The notes beneath the pieces were generated by a model. That model ran no database searches. It was not told the DNA's origin and worked only from the letters and a program-made list of their open reading frames with translations. Positions 21,237 to 45,176 of a DNA stretch of 64,000 nt are shown in pieces (the first letter of the stretch is position 1; each line of letters starts with the position of its first letter). Source of the stretch: Escherichia phage phiWec179; sequence record LC739533.1, one strand, 5' to 3'. The position numbers and the translations under genes are program-made.

Positions 21237-21513
21237 TGAAGTGAAAAGTTACGAAAGCAATTTCGTAAGCAATTGGGAAGCATGGGATGAGATGGGTGTT
21301 GGTGAACTCTATTTCTACAATGTAACCCTTCGTCCAGAATATCAACATCTCATTCCAGAAGGCACTGTGCAGATCGGTATGTTCATGTCTTCTCAAGACG
21401 GTGTTGTGCAGTTTGAGTTTTACTCTGACACAGAACAGAACGAATTCACTTATCGTGCATTCAATATCGTATTAGCTTTAGGAGAGGAGAAATTTTATGA
21501 CGACGAAGTATAA
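21223..21513 (+). CDS. hypothetical protein
   Basis: Start at ATG 21223 with RBS gaggagg. Confidence 0.5.
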   Translation: MAEFNEVKSYESNFVSNWEAWDEMGVGELYFYNVTLRPEYQHLIPEGTVQIGMFMSSQDGVVQFEFYSDTEQNEFTYRAFNIVLALGEEKFYDDEV

Positions 21514-21694
21514 AACAGTAGCAGAAGCACTGAAAGCAGCACACGAAGCCATTGCAGAAGCTGAACAATTGGCTGATGAAACTGGCACAAGTTTTCACTT
21601 CTCTGTTGAATATGGGATGGGTGGTACTTATGACCCAGAAGATGAGAACGAATACACTGGGACCAACTGGCACCCATCTTCCCTCGGTTGTTAA
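21497..21694 (+). CDS. small protein, member of tandem paralog triplet
   Basis: C-terminal W-x-SS-x-C motif shared with the next two ORFs. Confidence 0.5.
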   Translation: MTTKYKTVAEALKAAHEAIAEAEQLADETGTSFHFSVEYGMGGTYDPEDENEYTGTNWHPSSLGC

Positions 21695-21708
21695 TAAGGA
21701 GAAATAAA

Positions 21709-21927
21709 ATGAGTGATCGTAATGCACAAGCATTAGCAGACAAAGCAAAAGAAATCATGAAGCTTGTGGATGCACTGGCAGCAGAAGCAGAAAAGGAAGG
21801 TTTCGGTCTTAGCTTAGAAAACAATACAATCTGTTTTGAAGATTGGCAGTCTTCTGCTTGCTATGGCGAAGCTGATGATGGTTTCACCGTTGACTCTGAC
21901 GGTGTTTGGTATAGCAGTAATTGTTAA
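21709..21927 (+). CDS. small protein, member of tandem paralog triplet
   Basis: Ends WYSSNC; RBS aaggag. Confidence 0.5.
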   Translation: MSDRNAQALADKAKEIMKLVDALAAEAEKEGFGLSLENNTICFEDWQSSACYGEADDGFTVDSDGVWYSSNC

Positions 21928-21936
21928 GGAGGGATC

Positions 21937-22206
21937 ATGTCAGAAGGTAGTGCCTTAATCAAGGCAAAAGTTAAAGAGATGGAAGAATCACAACAGAAGT
22001 TCCGCAACGAGATTGAAGAGCTTTGTGAGCAGTTCCAAGAACAAGCGTGGATCGGTGATTACGGGAATGGGGAAACTTACTACCCAACAGGAACAAACGC
22101 AGAAGAACATTATCTCACCTATATCTGCGGAGACTATGATATTGAGATTGACGAAAACGGTCTGATGACCGAAGGTCTTTGGGTGTCTTCCTCGGAAATG
22201 TGCTAA
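21937..22206 (+). CDS. small protein, member of tandem paralog triplet
   Basis: Ends WVSSSEMC; RBS aaggagg. Confidence 0.5.
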   Translation: MSEGSALIKAKVKEMEESQQKFRNEIEELCEQFQEQAWIGDYGNGETYYPTGTNAEEHYLTYICGDYDIEIDENGLMTEGLWVSSSEMC

Positions 22207-22215
22207 TAAATAATA

Positions 22216-22237
22216 ACCCGCTTCGGCGGGTTTTTTA
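22216..22237 (+). terminator. rho-independent terminator (CCCGC-TTCG-GCGGG + T6)
   Basis: Perfect hairpin followed by TTTTTT. Confidence 0.6.
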
Positions 22238-22248
22238 TTGTGTGAGTG

Positions 22249-22277
22249 TTGACAAGACACGAAGAACCTGGTAGACT
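22249..22277 (+). promoter_or_regulatory. sigma70-type promoter TTGACA-17-TAGACT
   Basis: Consensus -35, 17-nt spacer, -10 TAGACT, about 30 nt before ATG 22306. Confidence 0.5.
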
Positions 22278-22305
22278 TGTCTCATCAACTAAGAGAGGAG
22301 GATAT

Positions 22306-23244
22306 ATGAAAGTATTAATCGGTAGTCGTGCGTTGGAAATGATTTGTCGTTCTCGTGGTGTAGAACTGTATCGTGCTTGCGTAGATCTGGATTACCTCTG
22401 CACTGAAGAAGAGTGGCAAGCAGAAGCCCAGAAATTCTCGAAAGATCGTTTCGTAGAAATTGTTGAACGTAAAGGTAACAAAGGGCATATCAAAATGATC
22501 GCGGGCGCTCATCTGGAATATGATATTGCACAACCAGGCGACTCTACAGATGCTTTGATTCAATACATCAAAGAGAATGCAGATCATCTGCCGCGTATTG
22601 GTTATGATGTGGTCGCGCCTTTGGATGTTTTATACCTTCTGAAGATGAGTCACCGTTTTAAGAAGGACAGTCCTCACTTCCTGAAAACAATGAAGGATAT
22701 CCACTTCATGCGTAACCTTGGAGCGAAGATCCCTGAAGAGTTGGAAGATACATACAAACTGCGTCAGAAGGAGTCCTATAATTACGGGCACCCTAATCTG
22801 AACGTGAAAAGTAAAGATTTCTTCAAGGGTGATGAAGTGCCTTATGTGTATGATCACGATAGCCTGCACAGAGTTTTAGCTGTAATGGAGGAACCAGCTT
22901 ACACGAACTACCTAAAGGATGGTAACGAGGTAATGACAAGTAAAGATAAGTTCTATGCTGTTGACGAAACTACCAGATTGCTTGGGGTGTTAGAGGAGAG
23001 TTTGGTTCTGGCTTCGGAAAGGTGTCTAATACCTTTCAACTACAGTGTTACAGGGAAGAAGGCATTTCTTATGGCTTTGACTAAAGTTTGCACTTCTATC
23101 ACATCGGGCTACTTTCGAGAATATGCTTATGAAAAGTTCTTCCTTGTGTGTAAGGTATACGATAATATGTATCCTAACGACGAGTGGGTGGATACGTTAA
23201 GACAAGCCATAGATAAGGGGGCTGTTGATGTATATAAAGCATAA
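22306..23244 (+). CDS. hypothetical protein
   Basis: Start at ATG 22306 (RBS agaggagg); track start 22246 would overlap the promoter. Confidence 0.6.
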   Translation: MKVLIGSRALEMICRSRGVELYRACVDLDYLCTEEEWQAEAQKFSKDRFVEIVERKGNKGHIKMIAGAHLEYDIAQPGDSTDALIQYIKENADHLPRIGYDVVAPLDVLYLLKMSHRFKKDSPHFLKTMKDIHFMRNLGAKIPEELEDTYKLRQKESYNYGHPNLNVKSKDFFKGDEVPYVYDHDSLHRVLAVMEEPAYTNYLKDGNEVMTSKDKFYAVDETTRLLGVLEESLVLASERCLIPFNYSVTGKKAFLMALTKVCTSITSGYFREYAYEKFFLVCKVYDNMYPNDEWVDTLRQAIDKGAVDVYKA

Positions 23245-23839
23245 ATATTTAGGAATCACAGACGAAGACTCCAAAGATGGAGAATTCGTCTACACGATCA
23301 CAGCAGCGAATGGATACTACCAGACCCGTATAGGGGGTTTATGGAGAGCTTTAAATGCGCGGGTAGGTAAGGGATCATACACAAACGTATGTGTAGATTT
23401 TAAAGATTTCAAAGAGTTTGCCGAGAGTGTAACAATATTAGCCAATTATAAAACATTAGATAGTTATGGGAACCACTATCACTTAGATAAAGACTTAAAA
23501 TGTTACAAGAAGGATAAATCTTACAACAAAGATTCAGTGCTGTTTATCCCTGGGCACTTAAATACCGCCTTGAAAGGTGTGATCCCTTACTTGGAGTGTG
23601 GGGCTACTTGTGGAGTCAGTTTTAGTAAGATTCGGAATAAGTTTCGAGCCTACTGTAATGATGGCGGTAGTAGACAGATACATTTAGGGTACTTCGAAAG
23701 TAAAGAAGCTGCTCAAAAAGCTTGGGTATTGGAGAAGATAAATCAAATAAAACGTTCCTTAATCAAAGAGAACATCTCGGACGAAGATATTTTGTATTTT
23801 ACGGGTGTTTTGATAAGCGATTTAGAAGGAGGTTATTGA
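23228..23839 (+). CDS. HNH homing-endonuclease-like protein with C-terminal AP2-type domain
   Basis: C-terminal GVSFSKIRNKFRAYCNDGGSRQIHLGYFESKEAAQKAW resembles AP2 domain; upstream GNHYHLDKD histidine-rich block. Confidence 0.5.
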   Translation: MYIKHKYLGITDEDSKDGEFVYTITAANGYYQTRIGGLWRALNARVGKGSYTNVCVDFKDFKEFAESVTILANYKTLDSYGNHYHLDKDLKCYKKDKSYNKDSVLFIPGHLNTALKGVIPYLECGATCGVSFSKIRNKFRAYCNDGGSRQIHLGYFESKEAAQKAWVLEKINQIKRSLIKENISDEDILYFTGVLISDLEGGY

Positions 23840-23840
23840 T

Positions 23841-24239
23841 ATGGGTTGGTGTGATCAGTCACAAAGTTACTTCAAAGTGACACATGTGGATCTCAACAAG
23901 GCAAGAGTGAAGCTGTTGAGTATTGAAAAAGAAACAGCAGCTATTGACAAACGCCTCCGAGAGAGTAAAGTGGTAATCACTTCTTGGTTCGGACTGAAAC
24001 GTAAAGTCCTCACGCAGCGAGAGCATGTAATTAAAAATATGCATGGTTGGGCTTGGTTCCACGACATGGCAAAACACCTGGGGTACATTTCTACTGAAGA
24101 ACACGACCTCTTGGAGCTACGTTATCGCCTTCCAGATGTAGAAGATTTAGATTTGTGGATCAGTTCCGAACAAATCTTCTTAACCGAGAGCGATTGGAAG
24201 AAAGTCAATATTTGTCTTAAATGGAGGGAGAATGAGTAA
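23841..24239 (+). CDS. hypothetical protein
   Basis: 132-aa ORF, RBS ggaggt. Confidence 0.55.
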   Translation: MGWCDQSQSYFKVTHVDLNKARVKLLSIEKETAAIDKRLRESKVVITSWFGLKRKVLTQREHVIKNMHGWAWFHDMAKHLGYISTEEHDLLELRYRLPDVEDLDLWISSEQIFLTESDWKKVNICLKWRENE

Positions 24240-24915
24240 AGTAGTTTTATCAACATTTGATGGATCTGGGATCATGGTACTTCGTTACGCAGAAGCGGGA
24301 CATAAATGCTATTGTGTAAATGCTGACGAAGGTGATCACGGGGCTTATGAAGTTCGCATGGAACATCCTAACATCACTTACGTGAACGCATGGATTGATT
24401 CCAACTTCAACCCTGAAGATTACGGTATTCCTAAGCCAGATATTATCTTTGGCTTCCCTCCATGTACCATGCTTGCTGGTTGCGGTAGTAAGCACGAACG
24501 TAGCGCAGAAGAGTTGGAAGAAGCTTTGGCTAACATTCGTATCGTGGAAGCTTTAGGAAATAAATACAACGTTCCGTGGATGATTGAGAATCCGGTGGGT
24601 AAACTGTCAACATTGTGGCGTAAACCGGATTTCTATTTCGATCCTTACGAATATGGCGGATATCTGTTTGATGAAGAAGGCAGCTTCCACCCTAAAATGC
24701 CTACCCGTGACGGTTACACAAAGAAAACCTGTATTTGGCATGGCAATGGTTTTGTTAAGCCTGTGAAGAAGCCTGTGGAACATATTGGTTGCTTCTGGGG
24801 CTGGAAAAGTTTAGGCGGAGCAAGTGCGAAAACAAAGCAACTCCGATCGTTAACTGCTCGCGGTTTTGCTCGTGCTGTGTTTTTATCTAACAACCTTTTA
24901 GATAAGGAGGAATGA
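24232..24915 (+). CDS. DNA (cytosine-5) methyltransferase-like protein (short form)
   Basis: FDGSG (motif I FxGxG), GFPPC (motif IV), MIENPVG (ENV motif VI); only 227 aa. Confidence 0.55.
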   Translation: MSKVVLSTFDGSGIMVLRYAEAGHKCYCVNADEGDHGAYEVRMEHPNITYVNAWIDSNFNPEDYGIPKPDIIFGFPPCTMLAGCGSKHERSAEELEEALANIRIVEALGNKYNVPWMIENPVGKLSTLWRKPDFYFDPYEYGGYLFDEEGSFHPKMPTRDGYTKKTCIWHGNGFVKPVKKPVEHIGCFWGWKSLGGASAKTKQLRSLTARGFARAVFLSNNLLDKEE

Positions 24916-25580
24916 TGACCCATTTAAAACCTTTTGGTGGAAAACCTATTGTGGCGTATCAAGTAGATCGTGATGATTGGGAAGGCAGTGTAGTTGTCTT
25001 TGGTAATCATTTCTTTGCTGTGCGTCGTAAAGGCGCAAGCATGTTAGATTGTGAGGAGGAGTATTGTCATGTCTCCCGTGCCAAAGAATTCGACCAGTAT
25101 GTAGAAAAAGGTTTTGTGCCTGTCAAAGCTTTACTGGAGGCAGGATGGTGGATACACTCTGCTCATGATGGTGTTAGACTTGACGAGTCTGTAGATAGTC
25201 TTGAGGCAGATTTTGACGAATGTGAAGATGGCATGTATATTGAGGGGGATCTTGTATTTTCCCTTGACGAGAAAAGTGTGTGGAAGAACTGGGAAGAAAT
25301 GGAACGTCACGCGCATTTTATCAATGATGCTTTGATTCGTAAAGCTTGGTTCACGGAGGCGGTGAAGGTAGCGTATCCGCAATTCACCTTTACAGAGGTT
25401 TGGGGCGGTCCACACCACATCACCCATACAGCATTTTTCGACTTCCCTGGTTCACGTTACAAAGGTAATGTAATGTGGGACTGGGATGAGAATGAAGTAC
25501 CATCTGTTCAAGACTTTCGTTGTTATGTTTGCCAAGGCGATCAAGAAGCCCTTGACAAATACCTGCAAAGTCTGGTATAG
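24912..25580 (+). CDS. hypothetical protein
   Basis: 222-aa ORF, RBS aaggagg. Confidence 0.55.
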   Translation: MMTHLKPFGGKPIVAYQVDRDDWEGSVVVFGNHFFAVRRKGASMLDCEEEYCHVSRAKEFDQYVEKGFVPVKALLEAGWWIHSAHDGVRLDESVDSLEADFDECEDGMYIEGDLVFSLDEKSVWKNWEEMERHAHFINDALIRKAWFTEAVKVAYPQFTFTEVWGGPHHITHTAFFDFPGSRYKGNVMWDWDENEVPSVQDFRCYVCQGDQEALDKYLQSLV

Positions 25581-25595
25581 TGCCAGCATCTGAAC

Positions 25596-25626
25596 AAAGC
25601 CTCCTGCTTCAGGGGGCTTTTCTTTT
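25596..25626 (+). terminator. putative rho-independent terminator
   Basis: AAGCCTCCTG/CAGGGGGCTT stem followed by T-rich tract. Confidence 0.45.
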
Positions 25627-25638
25627 ATGGGAGGAAAT

Positions 25639-26133
25639 ATGTTTCAAGTAGAAATTCATGTGCACAACAGTTGTTCAAATTGCGAAACTTGTGGTTACAA
25701 TAGTTCAACCATGATCACTGTTAGCGGAGACTTAGGACATGCCAAGTTTGGCGAAGTCGCAAGCTGCTTCAGCGGAGAGGATGCAGATTGGCATGATATT
25801 GCTTTGTGGCTATGCGGAAGACTGAATGTAAATTGTAAAGACTTCCCTGAACTGTTGAGCCGAAATCTTATTGATAGTCGGGAACAAGCCTACAATATTT
25901 ATGCCGCTTCTGTTTATGTTGATCATAAATGGGTAGAAGATGAAGAAGCTGAACGTTTGCTGCGCCTCTACTACGAAGCAGAGGAAGCTTATGATAACTA
26001 TTATAGCATGTCCAACATTCTACGCTTGTTTGCAGAGTTTGATATTTACTTTGAAGTGAGTTATTCTGAAGAGGAAGTGTATGATTTTGATGACGATGAT
26101 TACGAGGAGGATGAAGAATGCCAAGACGATTAA
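25639..26133 (+). CDS. hypothetical protein with highly acidic C-terminus
   Basis: Start at ATG 25639 (RBS gggagg); CxxC pair near N-terminus. Confidence 0.5.
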   Translation: MFQVEIHVHNSCSNCETCGYNSSTMITVSGDLGHAKFGEVASCFSGEDADWHDIALWLCGRLNVNCKDFPELLSRNLIDSREQAYNIYAASVYVDHKWVEDEEAERLLRLYYEAEEAYDNYYSMSNILRLFAEFDIYFEVSYSEEEVYDFDDDDYEEDEECQDD

Positions 26134-26918
26134 TAGTGATCAGCGGTGCTGGTCTAAGCGCCGATAGCGGTGTACGTACTTTCCGCACTGATACAGATAG
26201 CGGGAAAGCTTTGTGGGATGAATACGACCTTTCTGAAGTGTGCGATATTTTCAATTTCCGTGCTGGCTACCAGCAAGAACAATGTGTTCCTGGCGCTGCT
26301 GGTGGATTAGATGCAGAGGGATACAACCTCTACCGTAAAACTCACGACTTCTACAATAAACGTCGCGTAGAGATGGATAGTGTGTCTCCTAACGCTGCGC
26401 ATTACCAGATCGCAGAGTGGTTCCAAGAGTACGGCTGCGATCGTGTTATCAACATCACAACAAACGTAGATGATCTTCTGGAACAAGCAGGGGTTGTTCA
26501 TGAAGATGTTCTGCATGTTCACGGCTTCCTGCCTGAAGTGATTGTAGACAATAGAATCATCAAGGATGTTGGTTATGCTGCTATTGATGTAGATGATTAC
26601 AAGTATGTGAAGCCCAATGTAGTGTTCTTTGGGGAGACTGCCCCACTGTATAACGATATGTACCACATCTTAGACGGCTTGACGGCTCAAGATATGGTGG
26701 TTGTAGTGGGCTGCTCTAATCAAGTGATCAACTTCAACTGGGATTTGTTCCCAGCCCTCAACATAGGAACAAAGATGGTCGTAGTTAATCCTGGGGTTAA
26801 TTACGAAGAAACACTTCTCTATGAAGATCGTGGAGTTTTTGTTTACCGAGAAAAAGCTGCAACAGCCTTCAGTAATGAAGGTTTCATTAAAATGATCGAA
26901 GACCACTTAAACAAATAA
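26118..26918 (+). CDS. Sir2-like (sirtuin family) NAD-dependent protein
   Basis: GAGLSADSGVRTFR, catalytic HG, KPNVVFFGE, VVVGCSNQV sirtuin blocks; no Zn-binding Cys tetrad seen. Confidence 0.75.
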   Translation: MPRRLIVISGAGLSADSGVRTFRTDTDSGKALWDEYDLSEVCDIFNFRAGYQQEQCVPGAAGGLDAEGYNLYRKTHDFYNKRRVEMDSVSPNAAHYQIAEWFQEYGCDRVINITTNVDDLLEQAGVVHEDVLHVHGFLPEVIVDNRIIKDVGYAAIDVDDYKYVKPNVVFFGETAPLYNDMYHILDGLTAQDMVVVVGCSNQVINFNWDLFPALNIGTKMVVVNPGVNYEETLLYEDRGVFVYREKAATAFSNEGFIKMIEDHLNK

Positions 26919-26926
26919 ACCAACCA

Positions 26927-26948
26927 AGGGGCTACGGCCCCTTTCTTA
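26927..26948 (+). terminator. rho-independent terminator (GGGGC-TACG-GCCCC)
   Basis: Hairpin plus T-rich tract after Sir2-like gene. Confidence 0.55.
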
Positions 26949-26961
26949 TTAGGAGATTACT

Positions 26962-27234
26962 ATGCAACAAGAAACTTTCGATTTTTATCTCGCCAATTAC
27001 GTCTACTACTTCTCTAATGGTACACAGAAAGGGGAAGGCAACCTTTACCTGGCTACCAACACTGGAGCAGGTGTTCGTAAAGCCAATATTGATTTAGCAA
27101 GAGAAACAGTTCGCTCTGGACTGGAAGAGACGCTTGAAACTCCCGTTGTTGTGGTTATACAAACTATCAGTTACCTTGCAACTTGTACTAAAGAAGATTT
27201 TGAGGCTCCTCAAACGCAATCTAACGAAGCATAA
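26962..27234 (+). CDS. hypothetical protein
   Basis: 90-aa ORF, last gene of rightward block. Confidence 0.5.
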   Translation: MQQETFDFYLANYVYYFSNGTQKGEGNLYLATNTGAGVRKANIDLARETVRSGLEETLETPVVVVIQTISYLATCTKEDFEAPQTQSNEA

Positions 27235-27266
27235 AAGAAAGGCACCCAAGTGGGTGCCTTTTCTAT
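27233..27266. terminator. bidirectional terminator at strand switch
   Basis: GGCACCC-AAGT-GGGTGCC hairpin flanked by A-tract (left) and T-tract (right) between convergent blocks. Confidence 0.5.
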
Positions 27267-27303
27267 TTGAGAGCGTCTCTGTGCGATTTAAGGGGGTTCT
27301 CGG

Positions 27304-27534
27304 CTATTTGTGAAGTGCTCTCTCGTACAACTCGATAATCAACTCGTCTTCGGCAGTAATACGGGCCATTTGATCTGTCTTCAGGATTGCTGGTTGGTAA
27401 TGATGCATTTCACTGCTCAAGATACACTCCCACTCATCTTCCCCTACTCTCTCACCTACGTGAATCTTCACAGGATACCAGAAAGGATTGTCCACCAGGA
27501 ATGCCATACAACCTTCTTCGATTTTGCTCAACAT
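27304..27534 (-). CDS. hypothetical protein
   Basis: 76-aa ORF, RBS aaaggag. Confidence 0.5.
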   Translation of the reverse strand: MLSKIEEGCMAFLVDNPFWYPVKIHVGERVGEDEWECILSSEMHHYQPAILKTDQMARITAEDELIIELYERALHK

Positions 27535-28249: not shown

Positions 28250-28848
28250 TATTTTCTCCTATTTTGCTCGAATGTAGCTTGTGTCGGTATGTCAAACCAG
28301 TGGAAGTAACCTTTTTGTTGGGGTGCGATGCTGGTGCCAGTTGCCACAGCCAACACATCCACACTGATACCTATCTGATCATCTTCTACCGTATAATCCG
28401 AGGACCATAATTTAACAGTCAACGGTGTCTTTCCGACGAGGAAGTGAAGTCCTGCGTTTCCCCAGAGATTCACTTCAATCGCCTCGTCTTGAGATACATC
28501 TTGCTCTACTTCCTGTAGTTTGTCAAACACTTTCTGCACATCTTTTGGGTTAAGACGGATACTGTGCAGATAGTCAAACATGTTCACAAAATCTTGTGCT
28601 CGTTTTGTGTTTTTGGATACAGGATGAAGACAGTGTGGCACTAACGGCGACACACGAATATACCCTCCATCATCGTACCAACGCACAATAAACACGTCTC
28701 GACTTGGCTGACGATCTTTTGCTAAGATCGTAACTTCTTGACCCTCTTCAATAGATGGGTAGTCTGGATCATACGCTGATGCACCATAGACCAAAGCTAC
28801 GTGTCCAACATCCAAAGGTGTTTTTCCGTCCCAATAATTTGTTTCCAT
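28249..28848 (-). CDS. hypothetical protein
   Basis: 199-aa ORF, RBS taggaggg. Confidence 0.6.
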   Translation of the reverse strand: METNYWDGKTPLDVGHVALVYGASAYDPDYPSIEEGQEVTILAKDRQPSRDVFIVRWYDDGGYIRVSPLVPHCLHPVSKNTKRAQDFVNMFDYLHSIRLNPKDVQKVFDKLQEVEQDVSQDEAIEVNLWGNAGLHFLVGKTPLTVKLWSSDYTVEDDQIGISVDVLAVATGTSIAPQQKGYFHWFDIPTQATFEQNRRK

Positions 28849-28857
28849 TTTCCCCTC

Positions 28858-37582: not shown

Positions 37583-37909
37583 TCAACCAATTATTTCTTC
37601 TGCTATACGTTCTTTTACCCAGTTCACACGATCCACATTCAAATGACAACGGCTTCTTTCCGCTTCTAAGGTGTACTTTCCAAAATTACTGTTGAAAGGC
37701 AACACCATAACCAAATCTTTGCGGTAGAACTGCTCATGCATTTCATCCAGTACAGGTTCGTATCGTTCGCTTTCCCCCATATCGTAAAAATCATAGAGGT
37801 TCGAGCACAAACCTGTGCAACGGGTGAACGGTTCACCTTCAGGAGCACCAGCTTCCAACCATGCCAAATACGTGCGGTAAAATGTTAATAGTTCTTCGCT
37901 CATTTCCAC
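37583..37909 (-). CDS. family-A paralog
   Basis: LLTFYRTYLAWLEAGAP..GLCSNLYDF..LPFN..CHLNVDRVNWVKERIAEE. Confidence 0.65.
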   Translation of the reverse strand: MEMSEELLTFYRTYLAWLEAGAPEGEPFTRCTGLCSNLYDFYDMGESERYEPVLDEMHEQFYRKDLVMVLPFNSNFGKYTLEAERSRCHLNVDRVNWVKERIAEEIIG

Positions 37910-38112
37910 TCTCCTTCATGATAGTAAACCTCAAAAGAATAGTAAGTGAACATGCTCATTGTAACACCTCCCATTTCTGGATCAACGGAAGTGTTGTTAT
38001 ACATGTCAACTACTGCCTGACCCGCTGCTTTGGCATGTGCTGCCGAATCACAGGCACAAACATCTTTCTCCCACGGAAACTTGCCATCATACTTAAGACG
38101 GACAATCCACAT
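37900..38112 (-). CDS. hypothetical protein
   Basis: 70-aa ORF. Confidence 0.5.
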   Translation of the reverse strand: MWIVRLKYDGKFPWEKDVCACDSAAHAKAAGQAVVDMYNNTSVDPEMGGVTMSMFTYYSFEVYYHEGEWK

Positions 38113-38114
38113 GA

Positions 38115-38342
38115 TTATTCCTCCATCTTAAACCATTGAGGGAATACTTTACGGAAGACACGAGTTGCTTCCAAAAGGAATTCCAATTCTTTTTCCCGAT
38201 CTGCGTTCCAACCGTGTACTTTAACATTGATCGCCAGTGCATCAGCGCGCTGACTCAATGCTTGGCAAATCGGATCGCGCAACACTACCGCATCATAAAA
38301 CTGACAAACAGCTTCAAGTTCATACCAATTATAAGCAGCCAT
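38115..38342 (-). CDS. hypothetical protein
   Basis: 75-aa ORF. Confidence 0.5.
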   Translation of the reverse strand: MAAYNWYELEAVCQFYDAVVLRDPICQALSQRADALAINVKVHGWNADREKELEFLLEATRVFRKVFPQWFKMEE

Positions 38343-38668
38343 TATTCATTCTCCTCTGCAATACGATCTTTAACCCAATTAATCCTGTCCACGTTCAGGT
38401 GACAGGCATCTGCATCTGACTCTAAAACATATGCATCGTAGTTCTCATTGAAAGGGAGTTCTTGACTCAACCCTTTATAGTGGAACTGTGCGTGCATCTC
38501 ATCTGACAAGGTTATTATAATGAGATTGAAGCCATCCCTGTGCACATAATCGAACAAGTTGGCACACAAACCCACACTTGGCAGAAACGGTCTGCCATAA
38601 GGAGCACCATTTTCAATCCATGCCAGATACTTTTTGTAAAACTTCATCAACTCTTCACTTGTTTTCAT
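38342..38668 (-). CDS. family-A paralog
   Basis: LMKFYKKYLAWIENGAP..GLCANLFDY..LPFN..CHLNVDRINWVKDRIAEE. Confidence 0.65.
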   Translation of the reverse strand: MKTSEELMKFYKKYLAWIENGAPYGRPFLPSVGLCANLFDYVHRDGFNLIIITLSDEMHAQFHYKGLSQELPFNENYDAYVLESDADACHLNVDRINWVKDRIAEENE

Positions 38669-38906
38669 TTAGCCACCTCGTCAGTTTTTCTTGCTCTTTG
38701 TTTGCGCGTTCTAAGCTTCTAAACTTTAAACAAAGGGGAAGAGTATCCACACCCATGCACAAGCTTTTATCTAAGCTGTGCTCCCCAACCAACCAAAGAG
38801 AATATGTTTGAACATCTAACCCATAGTTTCTGTCTTTCCATAATCTCACCCCAAGAACATCAAAAGGCGCTTCCGCGACTAAAGAAAGAAACCGATCTTT
38901 ATTCAT
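38655..38906 (-). CDS. hypothetical protein
   Basis: 83-aa ORF. Confidence 0.5.
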   Translation of the reverse strand: MNKDRFLSLVAEAPFDVLGVRLWKDRNYGLDVQTYSLWLVGEHSLDKSLCMGVDTLPLCLKFRSLERANKEQEKLTRWLNENK

Positions 38907-38907
38907 G

Positions 38908-39252
38908 TTACACCACCTCTACCACATGAATGGACACATCGTCACGGTAGTATTTATCATCCCCGTAAATCTGGCCCAAACGTACACATGCGTCGTAGAT
39001 AGAAAGGGCTGGGATCTGATAAGTTTTAATACTGCCGTTATCTTTTGTATACCGGATCTCAAAAAGACGCATCACATCTTCAGCTACCACCTCAAAAGTG
39101 GCGCAGCCCATTCTCAACTCAATAACACAATCTGTTCCGTCATCACTATTGATCCAGTAGTAGTCCACATCCTCGTCTGTATTTGTCACAGGGTATTGCT
39201 TACCAACAGTGAAATATGGAACGGAAGATGATACGCACAAAAGTTTAGTCAT
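38908..39252 (-). CDS. hypothetical protein
   Basis: Start at ATG 39252 (RBS aaggagag). Confidence 0.5.
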   Translation of the reverse strand: MTKLLCVSSSVPYFTVGKQYPVTNTDEDVDYYWINSDDGTDCVIELRMGCATFEVVAEDVMRLFEIRYTKDNGSIKTYQIPALSIYDACVRLGQIYGDDKYYRDDVSIHVVEVV

Positions 39253-39312
39253 TTTTCTCTCCTTATTGTCTTGATGTGGTAAGCATACCATACAGAAATC
39301 AGGTGTCAAGCT

Positions 39313-39513
39313 TTATCGACACAGATAGTTGTAACGATCTGCTTTATCCTCTGCTTCAGCAAAGTCAGCAATCAAGGAAGTTTTGAGTTCTTCCAACTCT
39401 TTCACCCAAGAGTCGTAATCGCTCTGTGTTTCCCCGATGGTTTGGAGAAAACAATCGTCGTAGCCAATAGACATGGCTAACTCGATAATACGTTCCAGTT
39501 TTTCTTCCATCAT
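39313..39513 (-). CDS. hypothetical protein
   Basis: 66-aa ORF. Confidence 0.5.
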   Translation of the reverse strand: MMEEKLERIIELAMSIGYDDCFLQTIGETQSDYDSWVKELEELKTSLIADFAEAEDKADRYNYLCR

Positions 39514-40034
39514 TTCTCTCCTTCTACAGATTCTTGTTTAATATGATAATAGGCACCCCGTGCCAGATACACTTCGTGTTCTACATCGCTGATCGGGAAC
39601 CCATCAGGATTGGAAAGTCCTTGCTCAATAGTGAGAATAAGGCTTCGCAAACTAAGAGCCAGCAATTCTATACGTGCTTCAAGCACACGGTTGTGTTTAC
39701 GAGAAATATCGTAGTTGCACTGTGCTTCCTTCCATTGTTCGGTGGCATGTTCCGCTACACGCAGAAGAACAGCTTTCTCCTGTTCAGCTTTAGATACTTC
39801 CCAGTTCACAGAAGTGTCAGCAGGAACAAGAATGAAAGGTTCTTCTTTCTCTCCCACAACAGACCAACGCCCCAGCTTACTATCTTTCAATGTATCCCAC
39901 GCATAGTCCCCATCGTCACAAGTAAATCGGAATACCTCTCCTTCCTTGGCCTCCCATTCAGCCTCGTAAGTTTTACCAGTGGTAACAAAGGAATGTTTAG
40001 AGAGACTACAGTAAACAGCGAATACCTTGCTCAT
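39510..40034 (-). CDS. hypothetical protein
   Basis: 174-aa ORF. Confidence 0.6.
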   Translation of the reverse strand: MSKVFAVYCSLSKHSFVTTGKTYEAEWEAKEGEVFRFTCDDGDYAWDTLKDSKLGRWSVVGEKEEPFILVPADTSVNWEVSKAEQEKAVLLRVAEHATEQWKEAQCNYDISRKHNRVLEARIELLALSLRSLILTIEQGLSNPDGFPISDVEHEVYLARGAYYHIKQESVEGEK

Positions 40035-40276
40035 TCTACCTCCTCATTAGAAATTACAGACAAAGAGAGCGTAGCAAAACCTACAGAGATTGCTCGCCCC
40101 TCATCAATAGCTTCGTTAATCATATAACTTACCAAACTGGTAGTAGCAAAATCACCATCTTCAGTAAGGCGAAACACTTCTTGATCCGGTTCGGTGATGA
40201 AAGGCAGAAGGTATTCTTTCTTTGTATCCAGGAAACGTACTACATGGAATAAACGGGTTTTATTTCCGTAAGACAT
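40031..40276 (-). CDS. hypothetical protein
   Basis: Start at ATG 40276 (RBS aaaggagag). Confidence 0.5.
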   Translation of the reverse strand: MSYGNKTRLFHVVRFLDTKKEYLLPFITEPDQEVFRLTEDGDFATTSLVSYMINEAIDEGRAISVGFATLSLSVISNEEVE

Positions 40277-40541
40277 TCTTTCTCTCCTTTGCTTTTGGAT
40301 ACTCCCAACCCTCTGGGAGATCTTCGTTAAGCATCCACTCAAAAGGCCAGCGACAATAGCTATGCCACTTTCCATCCAAGTAGAGGCAATCTTCATCTAC
40401 TGGTCCACAAGGATTGATAACTACAACACACCCTTTTGCTCGCCAATACTGAACTATTTCGGGGTAAAAACAAGAAACATCAGTCCACTCCCAAATACGT
40501 TCATCATTCAAACGATACGCTGCTGGTAATGTTTCTTTCAT
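40260..40541 (-). CDS. hypothetical protein
   Basis: 93-aa ORF. Confidence 0.5.
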   Translation of the reverse strand: MKETLPAAYRLNDERIWEWTDVSCFYPEIVQYWRAKGCVVVINPCGPVDEDCLYLDGKWHSYCRWPFEWMLNEDLPEGWEYPKAKERKNVLRK

Positions 40542-40545
40542 CCGA

Positions 40546-40992
40546 TCAAACCTCTGTCAAAGAGAAACGCCAATCTTTACTACTACCCACACCAAGGAAG
40601 TAATAGTCTCCGGTACTAACGGAAATACGCCAAGCGGAAATCCAGTCAGGAATCTCTGGCTTATGGCTGTAGCCATAGCGATCACCACTTGAATCTGTTG
40701 CAATATAATTAACAAATTCAGGCACATCTAAAGTTTCACCTTGATACTCTACACGCTTGAAGCCATCTTCCACTTGTTCCTCCCCTTCTACCAGAAGGGC
40801 AAGAAGCTGAATGTGCGGACAAGTGAAATCTTGCCCTGGATAACGTGAACGGATATCTGTAAGCAGAGCGATCACCGCGTCTGCCAGATTTTGGTAATCT
40901 TCATACTTCACGAACGTCCCTTTTGTAGGATCATCCGAACACAAAAGCCAAGCGTCGTTCGGATTCACTCCATAATGTTTAACTTTAGACAT
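40546..40992 (-). CDS. hypothetical protein
   Basis: 148-aa ORF. Confidence 0.6.
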   Translation of the reverse strand: MSKVKHYGVNPNDAWLLCSDDPTKGTFVKYEDYQNLADAVIALLTDIRSRYPGQDFTCPHIQLLALLVEGEEQVEDGFKRVEYQGETLDVPEFVNYIATDSSGDRYGYSHKPEIPDWISAWRISVSTGDYYFLGVGSSKDWRFSLTEV

Positions 40993-41072
40993 ACACCCTC
41001 CTATTCGTACATTAAGAAGCCCAAAATAATAATCAGGGCAGCGAAAATAATAATCTCTATCATATCACATTC

Positions 41073-41285
41073 TCACTTATTCATAGAAGCAGGAAGAATC
41101 GAATGACACTTCCTGCACACTTTCACTTTAACAAGATTATCACTCCCTTCTGCGTAAATCAAAGCTTCTTTCAACTTATTCCCACACGAACAATACTCTG
41201 TTAGGTCCAGGGGAACATCAAAAAGCCCGTAATCGCTCTCATATTGTTTCTTACACAACGAAACCACTCTTGTAAAGTAAGACAT
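41073..41285 (-). CDS. small zinc-ribbon protein
   Basis: CSCGNK..CRKCHS. Confidence 0.5.
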   Translation of the reverse strand: MSYFTRVVSLCKKQYESDYGLFDVPLDLTEYCSCGNKLKEALIYAEGSDNLVKVKVCRKCHSILPASMNK

Positions 41286-41288
41286 TTC

Positions 41289-41510
41289 TTATTCCTCGAT
41301 CACTTCTACATCCCAAGAGAAGAATACATAGTCACAACCTTCCCAAACATCATCCTCCAGGATCTCACAACCTTCCACTTTAGCCATCTCTTCTTGGGAA
41401 ACGAAGAATGTTTGCAGATCATCGCTGAAAAGGTGTGCTTCAACAACAAAAGGAAGCTGAACGTTCTCGAAACCTACATAGCCTGTAACATCAATAATCT
41501 TAATTTTCAT
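41289..41510 (-). CDS. hypothetical protein
   Basis: 73-aa ORF. Confidence 0.5.
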   Translation of the reverse strand: MKIKIIDVTGYVGFENVQLPFVVEAHLFSDDLQTFFVSQEEMAKVEGCEILEDDVWEGCDYVFFSWDVEVIEE

Positions 41511-41701
41511 GATGGTTCTCCTTTATAAAGTAAACCTCTTAGTTCGCATTCTGCCACCAATAGACGGTTGGCTTGATTGTCCATAGACACGTCTATCTCC
41601 ACACTCCAAGCATTAATATACACTTCGTTGATCTTTGCGTCAAGCATTTGTGCAACTAAAGCTACGGCTCCAGCATATTCAAGTTTGATCTCTATAATCA
41701 T
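41507..41701 (-). CDS. hypothetical protein
   Basis: 64-aa ORF. Confidence 0.5.
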   Translation of the reverse strand: MIIEIKLEYAGAVALVAQMLDAKINEVYINAWSVEIDVSMDNQANRLLVAECELRGLLYKGEPS

Positions 41702-41985
41702 TTAAGATGATCCCTTACCCATTGGATACGGACAGCATTGAGATGAGAACCATCTTCCTTGTATTCTTTCGCGTAATCATCCCAATCCTTATTGAACGGG
41801 AGTTCTGGGTCCAACCCCGCAGCTTCAAACTGTTTTGACATTTCATACAGCAAATCATCATCACAATAACCGAAGAAATAGAGATTAGTACATAAACCCC
41901 ATTCACGGCGGAAAGGATTACCGTCTGGCGCTCCCGCGTCCACCCAATCTGCGTAAGCTTGATAGAACTCTCGTAATGTTTTCAT
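41698..41985 (-). CDS. family-A paralog
   Basis: LREFYQAYADWVDAGAP..GLCTNLYFF..LPFN..SHLNAVRIQWVRDHL; start at ATG 41985. Confidence 0.6.
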   Translation of the reverse strand: MKTLREFYQAYADWVDAGAPDGNPFRREWGLCTNLYFFGYCDDDLLYEMSKQFEAAGLDPELPFNKDWDDYAKEYKEDGSHLNAVRIQWVRDHLK

Positions 41986-42140
41986 AACCACCCCTTATCT
42001 TGATAACCTTTAGAAAACCCTTCTTCCCACTCTTGAAACTGTTCAGGATGTTTATTGGGATCGTAAGGATTGTGGCGGCAAAACATGCCGAATTTATAAC
42101 CCTGTGCGTAGCCTTTATCGAATGCGTTCTTACTCTCCAT
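41982..42140 (-). CDS. small protein (52 aa)
   Basis: Not in track; RBS gaggagag; ATGA overlap with next gene. Confidence 0.4.
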   Translation of the reverse strand: MESKNAFDKGYAQGYKFGMFCRHNPYDPNKHPEQFQEWEEGFSKGYQDKGWL

Positions 42141-42152
42141 TGTTCTCTCCTC

Positions 42153-42425
42153 TTATTCAACGTTCCAGAAAACACCCCGTTTATCTGTAATGTCTATACG
42201 ATACTCCTCCCACATCTTAGTTACAAGAGGTCTTTTCACATAACCGTGAAAATAAACTTCAGAATGCACCCCGTAAGCTGTGTAATTGTCAACAGTCCCT
42301 TCTACCTTGAAGATCACCATGTCTCCACCTAAAAATCTTTCAAAAACCAAGGTGAAACAGTCGAACTTAACAACGTCTCCCTCGAAGAGGGAGATATCTT
42401 TCACCTTACAGAAATGTCCGATCAT
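42153..42425 (-). CDS. hypothetical protein
   Basis: 90-aa ORF. Confidence 0.5.
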   Translation of the reverse strand: MIGHFCKVKDISLFEGDVVKFDCFTLVFERFLGGDMVIFKVEGTVDNYTAYGVHSEVYFHGYVKRPLVTKMWEEYRIDITDKRGVFWNVE

Positions 42426-42434
42426 TTTCTCTCC

Positions 42435-42626
42435 TTAATACACATCACCTACAAACCAGATTTCTGGATCGCCATACTGATCCTTCTCGTAAGATTTGTA
42501 GACACTACAGCAATATTTCAAAACACCGTCCACAAGGATTGTTGATCTTTCTTCTGGAATCTCTGTGATCTCCCCTTTGCGGGTTTCGAAGATGGTATCA
42601 CCCTTTTCAATTAGTCGGATTTTCAT
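42435..42626 (-). CDS. hypothetical protein
   Basis: 63-aa ORF. Confidence 0.5.
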   Translation of the reverse strand: MKIRLIEKGDTIFETRKGEITEIPEERSTILVDGVLKYCCSVYKSYEKDQYGDPEIWFVGDVY

Positions 42627-42627
42627 A

Positions 42628-42825
42628 TCATACCTCCCTCAATGCGATTAGTGCGTTCACCAGATTATCAACACCTTGAGCATCCAGGGCAATAACATCA
42701 AAGTTAAACCCTGTATCAGTTGGGACTTTACGTGTTATGGTGTAATAATCCTCTGCATGACGTTCAACATATGCGTATGGGTAACTGGTGTTCGGATCAT
42801 GTTTTACGCGAATAGATGTTTTCAT
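42628..42825 (-). CDS. hypothetical protein
   Basis: 65-aa ORF. Confidence 0.5.
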   Translation of the reverse strand: MKTSIRVKHDPNTSYPYAYVERHAEDYYTITRKVPTDTGFNFDVIALDAQGVDNLVNALIALREV

Positions 42826-43295
42826 GTTTTGTTCTCCTCTTTAGTTGCAACACGGAACTTATTAGCTTCTCTCACCTGGAACATGAAGTCTTTCTTCTTC
42901 ATAATCCCGATGGACATTTCATCCAGTTCTTCTGGATGGATCTGGAGATTACGGCGATCGGACAGGAACCAAGATTTCTCCCACCAGAAGCGTTGATCCT
43001 CCTCCTTGTGGTGCTTGTATTCCTCTTTTTCTTTTTCTGTGAGGATCTTGAAGCGATTCTTTCCTTCCCAACGCATTGCTGTGTTAAAAGGAATACCGTT
43101 ATCCCCATTATACACTGCGGAAGTAGGAAGGCAATAGCCAGTTTCTGCGTCGATCATTTGGTAGTGAAATTCACATTCCAGTTCAACGTACTCTAAATCC
43201 CCATAAAAATCACTGATCAAGAAAGCAATGTAAGTTTCACCATGTTCGGGAACAAATTCTTGCTTTGTCAACATCTCCAGTTTCAAACCTGCCAT
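42822..43295 (-). CDS. hypothetical protein
   Basis: 157-aa ORF. Confidence 0.6.
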   Translation of the reverse strand: MAGLKLEMLTKQEFVPEHGETYIAFLISDFYGDLEYVELECEFHYQMIDAETGYCLPTSAVYNGDNGIPFNTAMRWEGKNRFKILTEKEKEEYKHHKEEDQRFWWEKSWFLSDRRNLQIHPEELDEMSIGIMKKKDFMFQVREANKFRVATKEENKT

Positions 43296-43307
43296 TGCTT
43301 TCTCCTT

Positions 43308-43541
43308 TTAGTCGAACCAGTTATATTCAGAAGGGTAACGCGCATAGTTTGGCTTATACCCCAGCCTTTTCATCTTAACAGACATACGAGTGAAGCCAAA
43401 GGTTTTTTTGCCCTTAGACATAAACTTCTTCCCACTCTTCATTGGCTTCTTAGGGTCTTTGATCGCCTGGTTTAACGCTCGCGCAAGCCACAAAGTGTAT
43501 GCGCTCGGTGCTTGGTTAACTTTCATCTTGTTACCCTTCAT
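43308..43541 (-). CDS. small highly basic protein
   Basis: 77 aa, K/R-rich. Confidence 0.5.
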   Translation of the reverse strand: MKGNKMKVNQAPSAYTLWLARALNQAIKDPKKPMKSGKKFMSKGKKTFGFTRMSVKMKRLGYKPNYARYPSEYNWFD

Positions 43542-43552
43542 ACGATCTCCTC

Positions 43553-43783
43553 TTATAAAATTTCAAGTTCTTCGAGTGTTTCTTTCAGGGAAACTGGCAA
43601 ATCACACTCCACATCCAGCATCGAAACCAACCAAGAGGTGGCTTCGGCTAACTTCTGGTAATCATCATACAACACATAACCCCCTTCGTCAACCTCTACG
43701 ATGCAACGATAAGATGCAAAAGGGTTTTTGCTCATTTCTTCAATGTCATAACGTTCAACAACCATTATTTCACCTCTGACCAA
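43553..43783 (-). CDS. hypothetical protein
   Basis: 76-aa ORF. Confidence 0.5.
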   Translation of the reverse strand: MVRGEIMVVERYDIEEMSKNPFASYRCIVEVDEGGYVLYDDYQKLAEATSWLVSMLDVECDLPVSLKETLEELEIL

Positions 43784-44067
43784 TCAACAGTAATACATTG
43801 ATAAGCTTGATGATTTATGTCCAATTCAATATAAACCACAAGCCCACGCTCGCGGAGTGCTGTTACCACCATATACATTAACTCGCGCTGTCTGGCGATC
43901 CCATCTTGGGAAAGAGGACGATTACAGAAGCCAAAATCAGAGGGCGTGAAATCCCGTTGGTAATTTCCCGCCCGTGCTTCTGAAAAACACGTCTCAATAA
44001 CCTCTTCAATAGGAAAACCGATGGAAGCTTCTTTGGCAATACTGCGTAACTGTTCGGTCAAATTCAT
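43765..44067 (-). CDS. hypothetical protein (family-C domain)
   Basis: F.PSDFGFCNRP..VVTALRERGLVV parallels the C-terminus of ORF 36974..37528. Confidence 0.55.
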   Translation of the reverse strand: MNLTEQLRSIAKEASIGFPIEEVIETCFSEARAGNYQRDFTPSDFGFCNRPLSQDGIARQRELMYMVVTALRERGLVVYIELDINHQAYQCITVDWSEVK

Positions 44068-44132
44068 TTCATTTCTCCTCTCGTCTGTGTATGCAAAGAT
44101 TATCTACCAACGTGATCCTTATGTCAAGCTAT

Positions 44133-44645
44133 TTATTCAAAATAAACTTTAACTTGTGCCGTGCTGTAGCGATTGTAAATCTCGACCACGGCTTTAGCAT
44201 TATCTTCTTTATAGGATTCTGCCAGATCTTCCGCATCTCGGATATTTCCGGCAACACCTACGAGAACAAGATCCACCATTACAAGATATTTTTTATCTTC
44301 TGGACTCTCTTGAGAAGGCTCTTGCACTGGTTCTTCCTTTGGTTCTGGTGGCAAACCAACCTCTGCCTCAACATAAGAGTCAAACCAAGTGATATCGTTA
44401 AAATGCTTTAACTCGTGTTTGGACAGCAGCATACCACAATCAACGAAAGCACCTGCATCAGCTTCAAAGACATGCCCTTCAAATGTTTGGAACTTAACCA
44501 CATCCCCTTTTTCTGTTGTCTCCAACACCAGGAAGTGTTTTGGCCCCAGCAGATCTGAAATCTTTCGGTTCAGATTGACAGCTTCACGGAACGCATTGTA
44601 CTCTTTTGTATTTTTGAATTTATAAGAATGCCCTTGAATAAACAT
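44133..44645 (-). CDS. family-B paralog
   Basis: 170 aa; C-terminal KKYLVMVDLVLVGV..VEIYNRYSTAQV parallels the adjacent ORF. Confidence 0.6.
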   Translation of the reverse strand: MFIQGHSYKFKNTKEYNAFREAVNLNRKISDLLGPKHFLVLETTEKGDVVKFQTFEGHVFEADAGAFVDCGMLLSKHELKHFNDITWFDSYVEAEVGLPPEPKEEPVQEPSQESPEDKKYLVMVDLVLVGVAGNIRDAEDLAESYKEDNAKAVVEIYNRYSTAQVKVYFE

Positions 44646-44657
44646 AGTAGTCTCCTC

Positions 44658-45176
44658 TTAGTCAAATATCACATTACTTACGAGTTTCGCTGTGCTACGC
44701 AGAGTATAAATCTCCACAAGCTTCCCTGGACTCTCTTTCTTCGCTTTCGTGGCTCTTTCTTGTGCCTCTGAAAAAGATGATACAGTATGCACTACTACGT
44801 AGTCAACAATAACTGCAAACTTTTTAGGCACAATATCGGCATCAGGACGATCGTCGTGCGCAGAAACATCCTTACCTGGCTGTGGTGCCAGCGGCGGCAA
44901 GCCTGTCATTAACAGTGCACCTCCATCAAAGAAATATCCGATTTCATCGTGTGCAATAAGGAAGCGATCCATTTGAGCATCACCTACTCCCTGATCCCAG
45001 AACACTTTCCTATCTTCTACGAAGATGATAAGGGACAGGACATTCCCATGAACATCCGTGTTAACTGGTTGGAACCAGTGATCCCCAATCGCTTCAGCCA
45101 ATTGTTTAGAGATTGATTGAAACAACTCTTGGTACGTGCCTTGTCTGAAACGATATACATTATTTGTTTTAAACAT
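44658..45176 (-). CDS. family-B paralog
   Basis: 172 aa; C-terminal KKFAVIVDYVVVHT..VEIYTLRSTAKL. Confidence 0.6.
   Translation of the reverse strand: MFKTNNVYRFRQGTYQELFQSISKQLAEAIGDHWFQPVNTDVHGNVLSLIIFVEDRKVFWDQGVGDAQMDRFLIAHDEIGYFFDGGALLMTGLPPLAPQPGKDVSAHDDRPDADIVPKKFAVIVDYVVVHTVSSFSEAQERATKAKKESPGKLVEIYTLRSTAKLVSNVIFD

Follow-up and report, generated by a model that had tools for sequence, protein, structure and literature searches.

Background

Pol-beta nucleotidyltransferases transfer nucleoside monophosphates to hydroxyl groups, and this fold is known from bacterial toxins that block tRNAs and from abortive-infection effectors. The present work concerns a stretch of 64,000 nucleotides from Escherichia phage phiWec179 (record LC739533.1), called the window throughout, in which three small genes of one family (T1, T2 and T3) stand upstream of a gene for a putative enzyme of this fold.

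In Mycobacterium tuberculosis, the 68-amino-acid (aa) protein MenA1 is encoded upstream of menT1; a 32-aa helix suffices for antitoxin activity, and MenA1 stretches over two MenT1 molecules at their active-site face (PMC10435456). MenA1 also induces an inhibitory auto-phosphorylation of MenT1 (PMC11375011). Regarding the AbiE system, Dy et al. found the motifs hG[GS]...R-x3-D-x-D to be essential in AbiEii (PMC3985639). Among phages, Ho et al. described MNT-like nucleotidyltransferases that make competitor cyclic dinucleotides and carry the motifs GS-x-AY[GAN]T-x4-SDxD and, downstream, NP-x-hh[DE] (bioRxiv 10.1101/2022.06.09.495361).

A sequence-only reading of the window had picked out the T genes as a tandem triplet, together with three gene pairs (named P, B and C here), as small paralogue groups, and had seen in all of them an ongoing diversification of accessory functions. 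Taken alone, small paralogue groups in the early region of a phage are ordinary; the triplet leads to a conserved two-part cassette.

Results and discussion

Linkage of the T genes to a nucleotidyltransferase gene

The T genes are arranged in tandem on the plus strand. T1 (21497..21694, 65 aa, isoelectric point (pI) 4.4) belongs to the YGMGG subtype, with EYGMGGTYDP in its sequence and the end NWHPSSLGC; T2 (21709..21927, 72 aa, pI 4.1) represents a degenerate third subtype and ends in VWYSSNC; T3 (21937..22206, 89 aa, pI 4.1) is of the xYGxGxTY subtype, with GDYGNGETYYP and the end GLWVSSSEMC. The conserved downstream partner of this array is the nucleotidyltransferase gene (22306..23244, plus strand), which encodes 312 aa with the domains DUF7277 and DUF7275.

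The two genes keep company far beyond this phage. Starting from diverse members of the T family, 8/8 contexts showed a DUF7275 gene downstream in the same orientation, at a distance of one to three genes. These contexts include the Myxococcus phage Mx1, the Xanthomonas jumbo phage XbC2 and contigs whose remaining gene content is unrelated; among the other genes nearby are RecA/DnaB, gp32/SSB, RNA ligase/PNK and NAPRTase. In the IMG/VR loci found with the T alignment, DUF7275 lies downstream in eight of nine, the ninth being too short. Starting from the enzyme, 80 IMG/VR loci were reduced to 59 clusters at 80% identity, 57 of which have at least 1.5 kb of upstream sequence, and T-family open reading frames (ORFs) lie upstream on the same strand in 40 of these 57 non-redundant loci (70%). 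The T matches at enzyme loci number 69 upstream, two downstream and none on the opposite strand. Within the 40 loci, the copy number is one in 19, two in 17, three in two and five in two, and the multi-copy arrays usually have one of each subtype. The RB69-like phage Shf125875 carries the three subtypes (orthologues of RB69ORF139c/138c, 137c and 136c), followed by one unrelated gene and then by the enzyme gene, an orthologue of RB69ORF134c. This oriented adjacency, independent of context and recurrent across distant phage lineages, indicates a functional cassette, and it is the strongest result of the analysis. Our search of the literature found no paper that names DUF7275 or DUF7277, the RB69 ORFs or phrog_899, the family of the T proteins, or that links this family with the enzyme. 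No description was found of the cassette, which is widely conserved and uncharacterised.

The reading that we prefer, and to which we give about an even chance, is that the window holds four ancient paralogue groups and that the T subtypes form a cassette with a MenT/AbiEii-like enzyme, the T proteins binding and controlling it. By analogy with MenA1 and MenT1, the T proteins would bind the adjacent nucleotidyltransferase and control its activity as antitoxin-like inhibitors, pseudo-substrates or specificity subunits, and the three subtypes would give non-redundant control. The analysis shows the homology, the signature and phage restriction of the T family, the fold and conserved catalytic residues of the enzyme, and the oriented linkage of the genes in unrelated phages; a physical interaction, the direction of any regulation and the enzyme substrate are inferences.

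The T protein family

An exhaustive HMMER search with the T profile gave 33 representative proteins, and a T-family profile search of a set of 5.8 billion proteins gave 414 clusters. All of these clusters are unnamed and have no Pfam domains; the phages Mx1 and XbC2 are represented, and many of the source contigs are 120-400 kb long. A word-indexed homologue search with T3 alone recovered only six close orthologues, and tblastn with T1 recovered only orthologues, at one place per genome. The database entries of phrog_899, DUF7275 and DUF7277 record no function.

Members of the family are acidic and 65-120 aa long. Their signature is an N-terminal amphipathic helix of about 30 residues ending in AE.IAD..G..F, followed by a small beta unit with (A)YG(M/x)G(G/x)TYYP(K)G; next comes an acidic stretch of variable sequence with many Trp, Ser and Cys residues, and the protein closes with G-W-x-S-S-S-x-x-C. 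The Cys is the last residue in 118 of the 120 listed members and in 103 of the 105 matches in nucleotidyltransferase loci, and G43, W82 and C89 are invariant. The YGxGxTYYP motif occurs in T1 and T3 but not in T2, which has an internal extra DWQSSAC besides its terminal motif; the degenerate third subtype without YGxGxTYYP is also found in other phages, T4-like arrays among them. In an AlphaFold2 model of T3 based on a 123-sequence alignment, with a predicted local distance difference test score (pLDDT) of 93.7, residues 3-33 form a helix, followed by a small sheet, a C-terminal strand and a short helix. This fold has no match in the PDB, where sequence and profile searches with the T family likewise gave no real matches, and comparison with the antitoxins MenA1 and AbiEi/COG5340 detected no homology. 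As the fold matches no solved structure, there is no detectable resemblance to a known antitoxin.

The pattern YGMGGTY[YDI] was also searched for in 185,579 bacterial and archaeal genomes, one per species. The single match was a false positive, so that at least the T1 subtype is phage-restricted. The T family thus appears to be an uncharacterised, phage-restricted family of small, very acidic proteins.

The nucleotidyltransferase

The enzyme has 987 homologous clusters and occurs in 735 phage records, among them Stephanstirmvirinae, many T4-like phages, phages of Pseudomonas, Aeromonas, Acinetobacter and Vibrio, actinophages (of Gordonia and Streptomyces) and jumbo phages; a few of these records carry the annotation 'putative nucleotidyltransferase'. 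A locus search with the single enzyme sequence reached close relatives only. The AlphaFold2 model (pLDDT 91.8) has, as a predicted structure, the pol-beta nucleotidyltransferase fold of MenT and AbiEii. Among 119 homologues, G6-S7 and D27-x-D29 never vary, and their consensus conserves R23. These residues make up motifs I and II, hG[GS] followed by R..DhD, at a spacing of 19 residues rather than the 15 of AbiEii, and the R-x3-D-x-D spacing is that of R63/D67/D69 in AbiEii (PMC3985639). The candidates for motifs III and IV are the invariant K113-M-S115-H116-R117 and D183-H184-D185, which do not match the published patterns (KLxAaxxR and +DxxD) exactly. A place in the Ho et al. family was weighed for the enzyme but dismissed, since the window enzyme has GS-x19-DxD and no NP motif and so belongs to a different clade.

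Regarding the surroundings of the enzyme gene, the region 23228-24915 (plus strand), 3' of it, encodes a phrog_953 protein that resembles HNH/AP2 proteins and a phrog_757 protein, whose family carries the annotation DNA methyltransferase. At one of the loci without T genes (L011), a 237-aa ORF just 3' of the enzyme resembles a DNA cytosine methyltransferase, by eye only. A lambda-type Ser/Thr phosphatase is encoded within a few kb of the enzyme, upstream in Stephanstirmvirinae (window 19105-19842, plus strand) and downstream in jumbo-phage contigs of about 350 kb (L024 7367-8146; L042, L047, L056, L058, L059, L061, L072 and L083). This proximity may be relevant, MenT-type enzymes being switched off by Ser/Thr phosphorylation, or may be a coincidence.

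Regulatory signals around the T genes

A consensus scan gave a sigma-70-like promoter candidate at 21049..21076 (plus strand; TTGACA-16-TATAGT, TG extended), 5' of the gene at 21223 and of the T array. Promoter-like sites are not enriched over shuffled sequence, and this candidate is thus weak evidence. An intrinsic-terminator-like hairpin, AACCCGCTTCGGCGGGTT followed by a T run, lies at 22215..22232 (plus strand), 9 nt past the T3 stop codon, and the record of phage phAPEC8 has a terminator annotated in the corresponding gp78-gp77 interval. It is followed by a promoter-like site from the same scan at 22249..22277 (plus strand; TTGACA-17-TAGACT), 5' of the nucleotidyltransferase gene. With these two signals between them, the T genes may be expressed more than, or independently of, the enzyme.

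Terminator-like hairpins are about three times as frequent in 20000-27400 as in shuffled sequence (16 against 5.4 +/- 1.9). The strong ones lie at 22215-22232, 25596-25620, 26926-43 and 27238-61, and the last marks a convergent strand switch, where the GC skew also changes sign (near 27 kb).

Paralogy of the four groups

All six-frame ORFs of the window of at least 40 aa (466) were translated and compared all-versus-all by BLASTP, and Smith-Waterman scores were compared with those of 2000 shuffles. The three pairs gave clear matches. C1 and C2 (36974 and 43765) match at E 1.2e-10, with 35% identity over 83 aa and a shuffle z of 19.2; B1 and B2 (44133 and 44658) at E 1.5e-8, with 24% over 178 aa and z 17.3; and P1 and P2 (29888 and 30126) at E 4.7e-6 in the 466-ORF set and 8e-9 pairwise, with 34% over 71 aa and z 12.7. 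The motifs quoted for these groups in the sequence-only reading can all be read in the sequence. The P proteins end in PQLIGEWE and PQLIAEW; the B proteins have KKYLVMVD..VVEIY..STA and KKFAVIVD..LVEIY..STA; the C proteins have FEPSSFGLCNSP..LRAKGLDV and FTPSDFGFCNRP..LRERGLVV. For the triplet, which had been said to end in W-x-SS-x-C, the tails NWHPSSLGC, VWYSSNC and LWVSSSEMC fit the general form W-x(1,2)-SS-x(1,3)-C-end, with Cys as the last residue in all three, but the exact form is that of T2 only.

Pairwise tests of the triplet were not significant (z 0.4, 2.9 and 1.4), and BLASTP gave no match below E 7. Profiles tell otherwise: one region of phrog_899 matches all three proteins (T1 at E 6.7e-14, T2 at 2.6e-4 and T3 at 5e-13). 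An independent hidden Markov model (HMM), for which all 118 family members used came from phages outside Stephanstirmvirinae, matches T1 at 3.4e-19, T3 at 3.7e-14 and T2 at 5e-5, and no other ORF among the 466 at E<10. T2 also matches another independent HMM at E 2.9e-4; against a further HMM (A3) it gave no match (E 0.87). The triplet is not significant pairwise but is recovered by profiles, and its members are thus true remote homologues, seen by profiles alone.

On these comparisons all four groups are true homologues. The sequence-only reading had tied chance similarity to non-significant E-values, which the P, B and C pairs do not have; the triplet does have them pairwise, yet profiles recover it. 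That short ORFs without any relationship share these motifs by chance is hardly conceivable: the failure of the triplet in pairwise tests speaks for it, but the z values of 12.7-19.2 and E-values down to 1e-10 of the three pairs, and the two independent profiles that recover the triplet specifically, already refute it.

Age of the duplications

Identities between the paralogues are just 24-35%, and each copy has its own counterpart in relatives. In phAPEC8, the one-to-one orthologues are gp81, gp79 and gp78 for T1, T2 and T3, gp61 and gp60 for P1 and P2, and gp45 and gp26 for C1 and C2. The triplet is intact in the Klebsiella Stephanstirmvirinae phage phi1_175008, and phi92-type Justusliebigvirus has P2-, B- and C2-like genes (gp024, gp003 and gp005) at 26-43% identity. 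Outside the subfamily, T1 is closest to other YGMGG-type proteins (up to 66% identity) and T3 to xYGxGxTY-type proteins of T4-like phages (60%), while T1 and T3 have only about 30% identity to each other; all three subtypes are also found in RB69-like phages. Since the identities are low and distant relatives have separate orthologues of each copy, the duplications are old. None of them is recent, and the four groups are ancient paralogues within the early or accessory gene set of the phage.

Changes of a different kind are seen between close relatives. C2 (43765-44067) has only 66% protein identity to its counterpart in phiWec188 (LC739537.1 117933-118226), although the DNA is about 94% identical over the region, which indicates an allelic replacement at the C2 locus. 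At the B1 position, phAPEC8 has gp25 (9368-9805), with the B-family N-terminal domain (phrog_622/3710) and a helical C-terminal domain (phrog_22975) unrelated to that of B1, an example of domain swapping among early genes. Recent change is replacement and module swapping, not fresh duplication.

Interpretation of the cassette

Several observations weigh against the binding and control of the enzyme by the T proteins. In Pfam, the enzyme matched only DUF7275 and DUF7277 at E<0.01, with no match to AbiEii/DUF1814, and its comparison with PDB sequences and profiles gave no real match; its link to MenT is by predicted fold only. No detectable T gene was found at 17 of the 57 enzyme loci (30%; e.g. 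L011-L013, checked by eye), so that T is not obligatory, unlike a classical antitoxin. With a terminator-like hairpin and a promoter-like site between T3 and the enzyme gene, it may be that the two are transcribed separately. It is also not obvious how an inhibitor role would account for the near-absolute terminal Cys, the invariant Trp and the Ser-Ser, and these obligatory residues fit a pseudo-substrate or a true acceptor equally well. As for groups P, B and C, the evidence supports no mechanism for them.

The alternatives differ in how much of this evidence they accommodate. The sequence-only reading took the groups as independent accessory genes under ongoing duplication and divergence, without any specific partner. 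It was right about duplication followed by divergence in all four groups, which are real paralogues, and the B1 and C2 loci do differ in content between related phages. As a whole, however, this reading is now very improbable: at 24-35% identity, and with orthologues of each copy in distant relatives, no duplicate is recent enough for the diversification to be called ongoing, and the triplet, rather than being free-standing, forms, with the adjacent nucleotidyltransferase gene, a widely conserved cassette of which it is the upstream half, the linkage statistics already contradicting independence for it. A different possibility, which strikes us as rather unlikely, is that the T proteins are substrates or carriers: the enzyme would add a nucleotidyl or phosphate group to the Ser-Ser or to the Tyr of YGxGxTYYP, or would otherwise process the S-x-x-Cys end, and the modified T would be active. 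Ser85, Ser86, Tyr42 and Tyr48 are strictly conserved and reactive and the Cys is obligatorily last, residues that an acceptor or a processed end suits better than a simple binding helix; transfer to hydroxyls is, moreover, the general chemistry of pol-beta enzymes. The S-x-x-Cys end also resembles the S/T/C-x-x-Cys-COOH pattern from which aminovinyl-cysteine rings arise in some ribosomally synthesised and post-translationally modified peptides (RiPPs). In addition, MenT-type enzymes can phosphorylate Thr/Ser of proteins (PMC11375011). This has to be set against T2-type copies without the Tyr motif, enzyme loci without T, and T proteins predicted to be confidently folded domains, not leader-core peptides; nor did Pfam find a dehydratase, a LanD-type flavoprotein or another tailoring enzyme among the neighbours in the window and the eight contexts. 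A RiPP aminovinyl-cysteine precursor was accordingly retained only within this possibility: T3 and most members have the S-x-x-C end, but no tailoring enzymes are nearby.

We also doubt that the T proteins are anti-defence decoys aimed at host AbiEii/MenT-type toxins or some other target, their linkage to the enzyme reflecting descent from a captured toxin-antitoxin module or residence in an anti-defence island. AbiE is indeed a widespread anti-phage system (PMC3985639), and the T copies are acidic, small, early-region and phage-only, with a copy number from 1 to 5. Their neighbours include Sir2, the phrog_757 protein and the Ser/Thr phosphatase, and in phAPEC8 an anti-defence gene for an Acb2/Tad1-type cyclic-nucleotide sponge (gp80, 28722-28991; PF24729, E 7e-19) sits between the T1 and T2 orthologues, a gene that is absent from phiWec181 at that position and from the whole window. 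Island residence alone, however, leaves the strict upstream, same-strand adjacency amid changing neighbours unexplained, and the three subtypes are old and conserved, not rapidly turning over. Returning to T proteins that bind and control the enzyme, a more specific version can be put forward only tentatively, as a possibility rather than an expectation: the T family would be a new, phage-exclusive class of partner for a viral MenT-like enzyme of more than 700 phages, RB69-like T-even phages included, with Ser-Ser-x-x-Cys as its functional centre (a pseudo-substrate plug or a modified residue), and the pair would act as a toxin-antitoxin-like switch on tRNA or another host target in takeover or counter-defence.

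Groups P, B and C and other paralogues

The P proteins are single small domains. P1 (29888..30115 with the annotated start, minus strand, 75 aa) belongs to phrog_24460, with a cross-match to phrog_16110, the family of P2 (30126..30341 with the annotated start, minus strand, 71 aa). P2 has a 43% homologue in Phi92_gp024 and occurs in 126 phage records, nearly all of Stephanstirmvirinae.

B1 (44133..44645, minus strand, 170 aa) and B2 (44658..45176, minus strand, 172 aa) have the same two-domain architecture, in which a Pro/Glu-rich linker joins an N-terminal domain of about 90 aa to a C-terminal one of about 55 aa, and their C-terminal domains alone match at E 2e-5. The N-terminal domain of B1 best matches phrog_3710 and phrog_622, families of unknown function. 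Its residues 1-86 also match, weakly, two goF-annotated PHROGs (E 7e-6 and 4e-3), for which B2 gave no match. The likeness of B1 to T4 GoF (comC-alpha, a modulator of mRNA metabolism) is weak and confined to the N-terminal 85 aa or so; the C-terminal domain is unrelated and there is no full-length similarity, so that the two share at most a common small N-terminal module. Close orthologues of B1 occur in only five records, with a more distant homologue in Phi92_gp003 (26-28%), and the orthologue of B2 is phAPEC8 gp24 (33%).

C1 (36974..37528, minus strand, 184 aa) has two modules, an N-terminal one of about 70 aa (phrog_24403/18786) fused to the C-family domain (residues 85-183), and the latter is what C2 (43765..44067, minus strand, 100 aa, phrog_15686) carries alone. 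Orthologues of C2 are phAPEC8 gp26 and Phi92_gp005. Groups P, B and C are Stephanstirmvirinae-specific orphan families whose members combine small domains that can be exchanged, and they resemble ordinary early-gene families of a single lineage.

Other paralogues were observed in the same region. Family A comprises nine of about 100-155 aa on the minus strand in 31765-47599 (31765, 33948, 35412, 37583, 38342, 41698, 46407, 46765 and 47132), with BLASTP E-values down to 9e-39; the last three are in tandem (46407-47599), and the three members scanned all match phrog_2510, of unknown function, and none has a Pfam match. A further pair, 45903-46133 and 41289-41510, both on the minus strand, shares 35% over 72 aa (E 2.5e-8, z 14.7) and matches phrog_15322; phAPEC8 has homologues of it, as does Klebsiella phage phi1_175008, where they form parts of longer ORFs. 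A weak Pfam match of the DnaJ central-domain type was seen for each of two small zinc-ribbon proteins with CxxCxGxG, 9815-9958 (plus strand) and 29697-29897 (minus strand), which are related (E 7.8e-6, z 14.1) although encoded on opposite strands 20 kb apart.

General features of the window

The window is 100% identical to the Escherichia phages phiWec181 and phiWec186 (Phapecoctavirus, Stephanstirmvirinae), whereas phAPEC8 has about 82% identity to it in the conserved parts. The nine ORFs of the four groups were all found at the coordinates given in the sequence-only reading, and they are annotated as 'hypothetical protein' coding sequences in LC739534/LC739535. Every one of them is preceded by a GGAG-type ribosome-binding site, all nine proteins are acidic except P2 (pI 6.5), and Pfam and NCBIfam scans of them gave nothing above noise. 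The plus-strand block of the triplet also encodes the Ser/Thr phosphatase, a DprA-like protein, the phrog_757 protein and a Sir2/CobB protein, and the P, B and C groups lie on the minus strand, inside a long block made up of some 70 small early genes. No tRNA gene that might tie to the nucleotidyltransferase was found in the window.

In 10284-13559 (plus strand), RmlB-like (GDP_Man_Dehyd/Epimerase, E 1e-79) and RmlD (RmlD_sub_bind, E 1e-73) genes flank two further ORFs, an arrangement suggestive of a dTDP-rhamnose-type sugar pathway encoded by the phage. The weak similarity between the two (E 8.6e-5) was rejected as paralogy, being merely the common SDR fold.

Comparison with known systems

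The T proteins and the enzyme are HMM members of PHROG 899 and of Pfam DUF7275/DUF7277, respectively, and the cassette gives a functional handle on these families. It is accessible in tractable phages, namely in the RB69 ORF134c-139c region and in Phapecoctavirus isolates. If our reading is true, a phage-encoded enzyme with a toxin fold and dedicated partners would add a new component to host takeover or counter-defence.

Among described phage systems, the enzymes of Ho et al. are likewise pol-beta nucleotidyltransferases found among anti-defence genes, such as DNA methyltransferases, but no small Cys-terminal partner has been described for that family. The AbiE system (AbiEi/AbiEii, DUF1814) is similar in its bicistronic order, with the partner gene first on the same strand, and in the hG[GS] and R-x3-D-x-D motifs of the enzyme (PMC3985639). 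It differs in its shorter motif spacing (15 against 19 residues) and in its Pfam AbiEii assignment, which the window enzyme lacks; the T partner is not a winged-helix AbiEi/COG5340 protein, and the cassette is encoded by the phage, not by the host. The closest known arrangement is that of MenAT1. In contrast to it, the T cassette is phage-borne and has one to five partner genes instead of one, with 30% of the enzyme loci having no partner; there is no sequence similarity on either side, and MenA1 has neither the additional beta unit of the T fold nor its invariant C-terminal W-SSS-x-x-Cys. The cassette is best described as a putative new variant on the theme of a nucleotidyltransferase toxin and its small partner.

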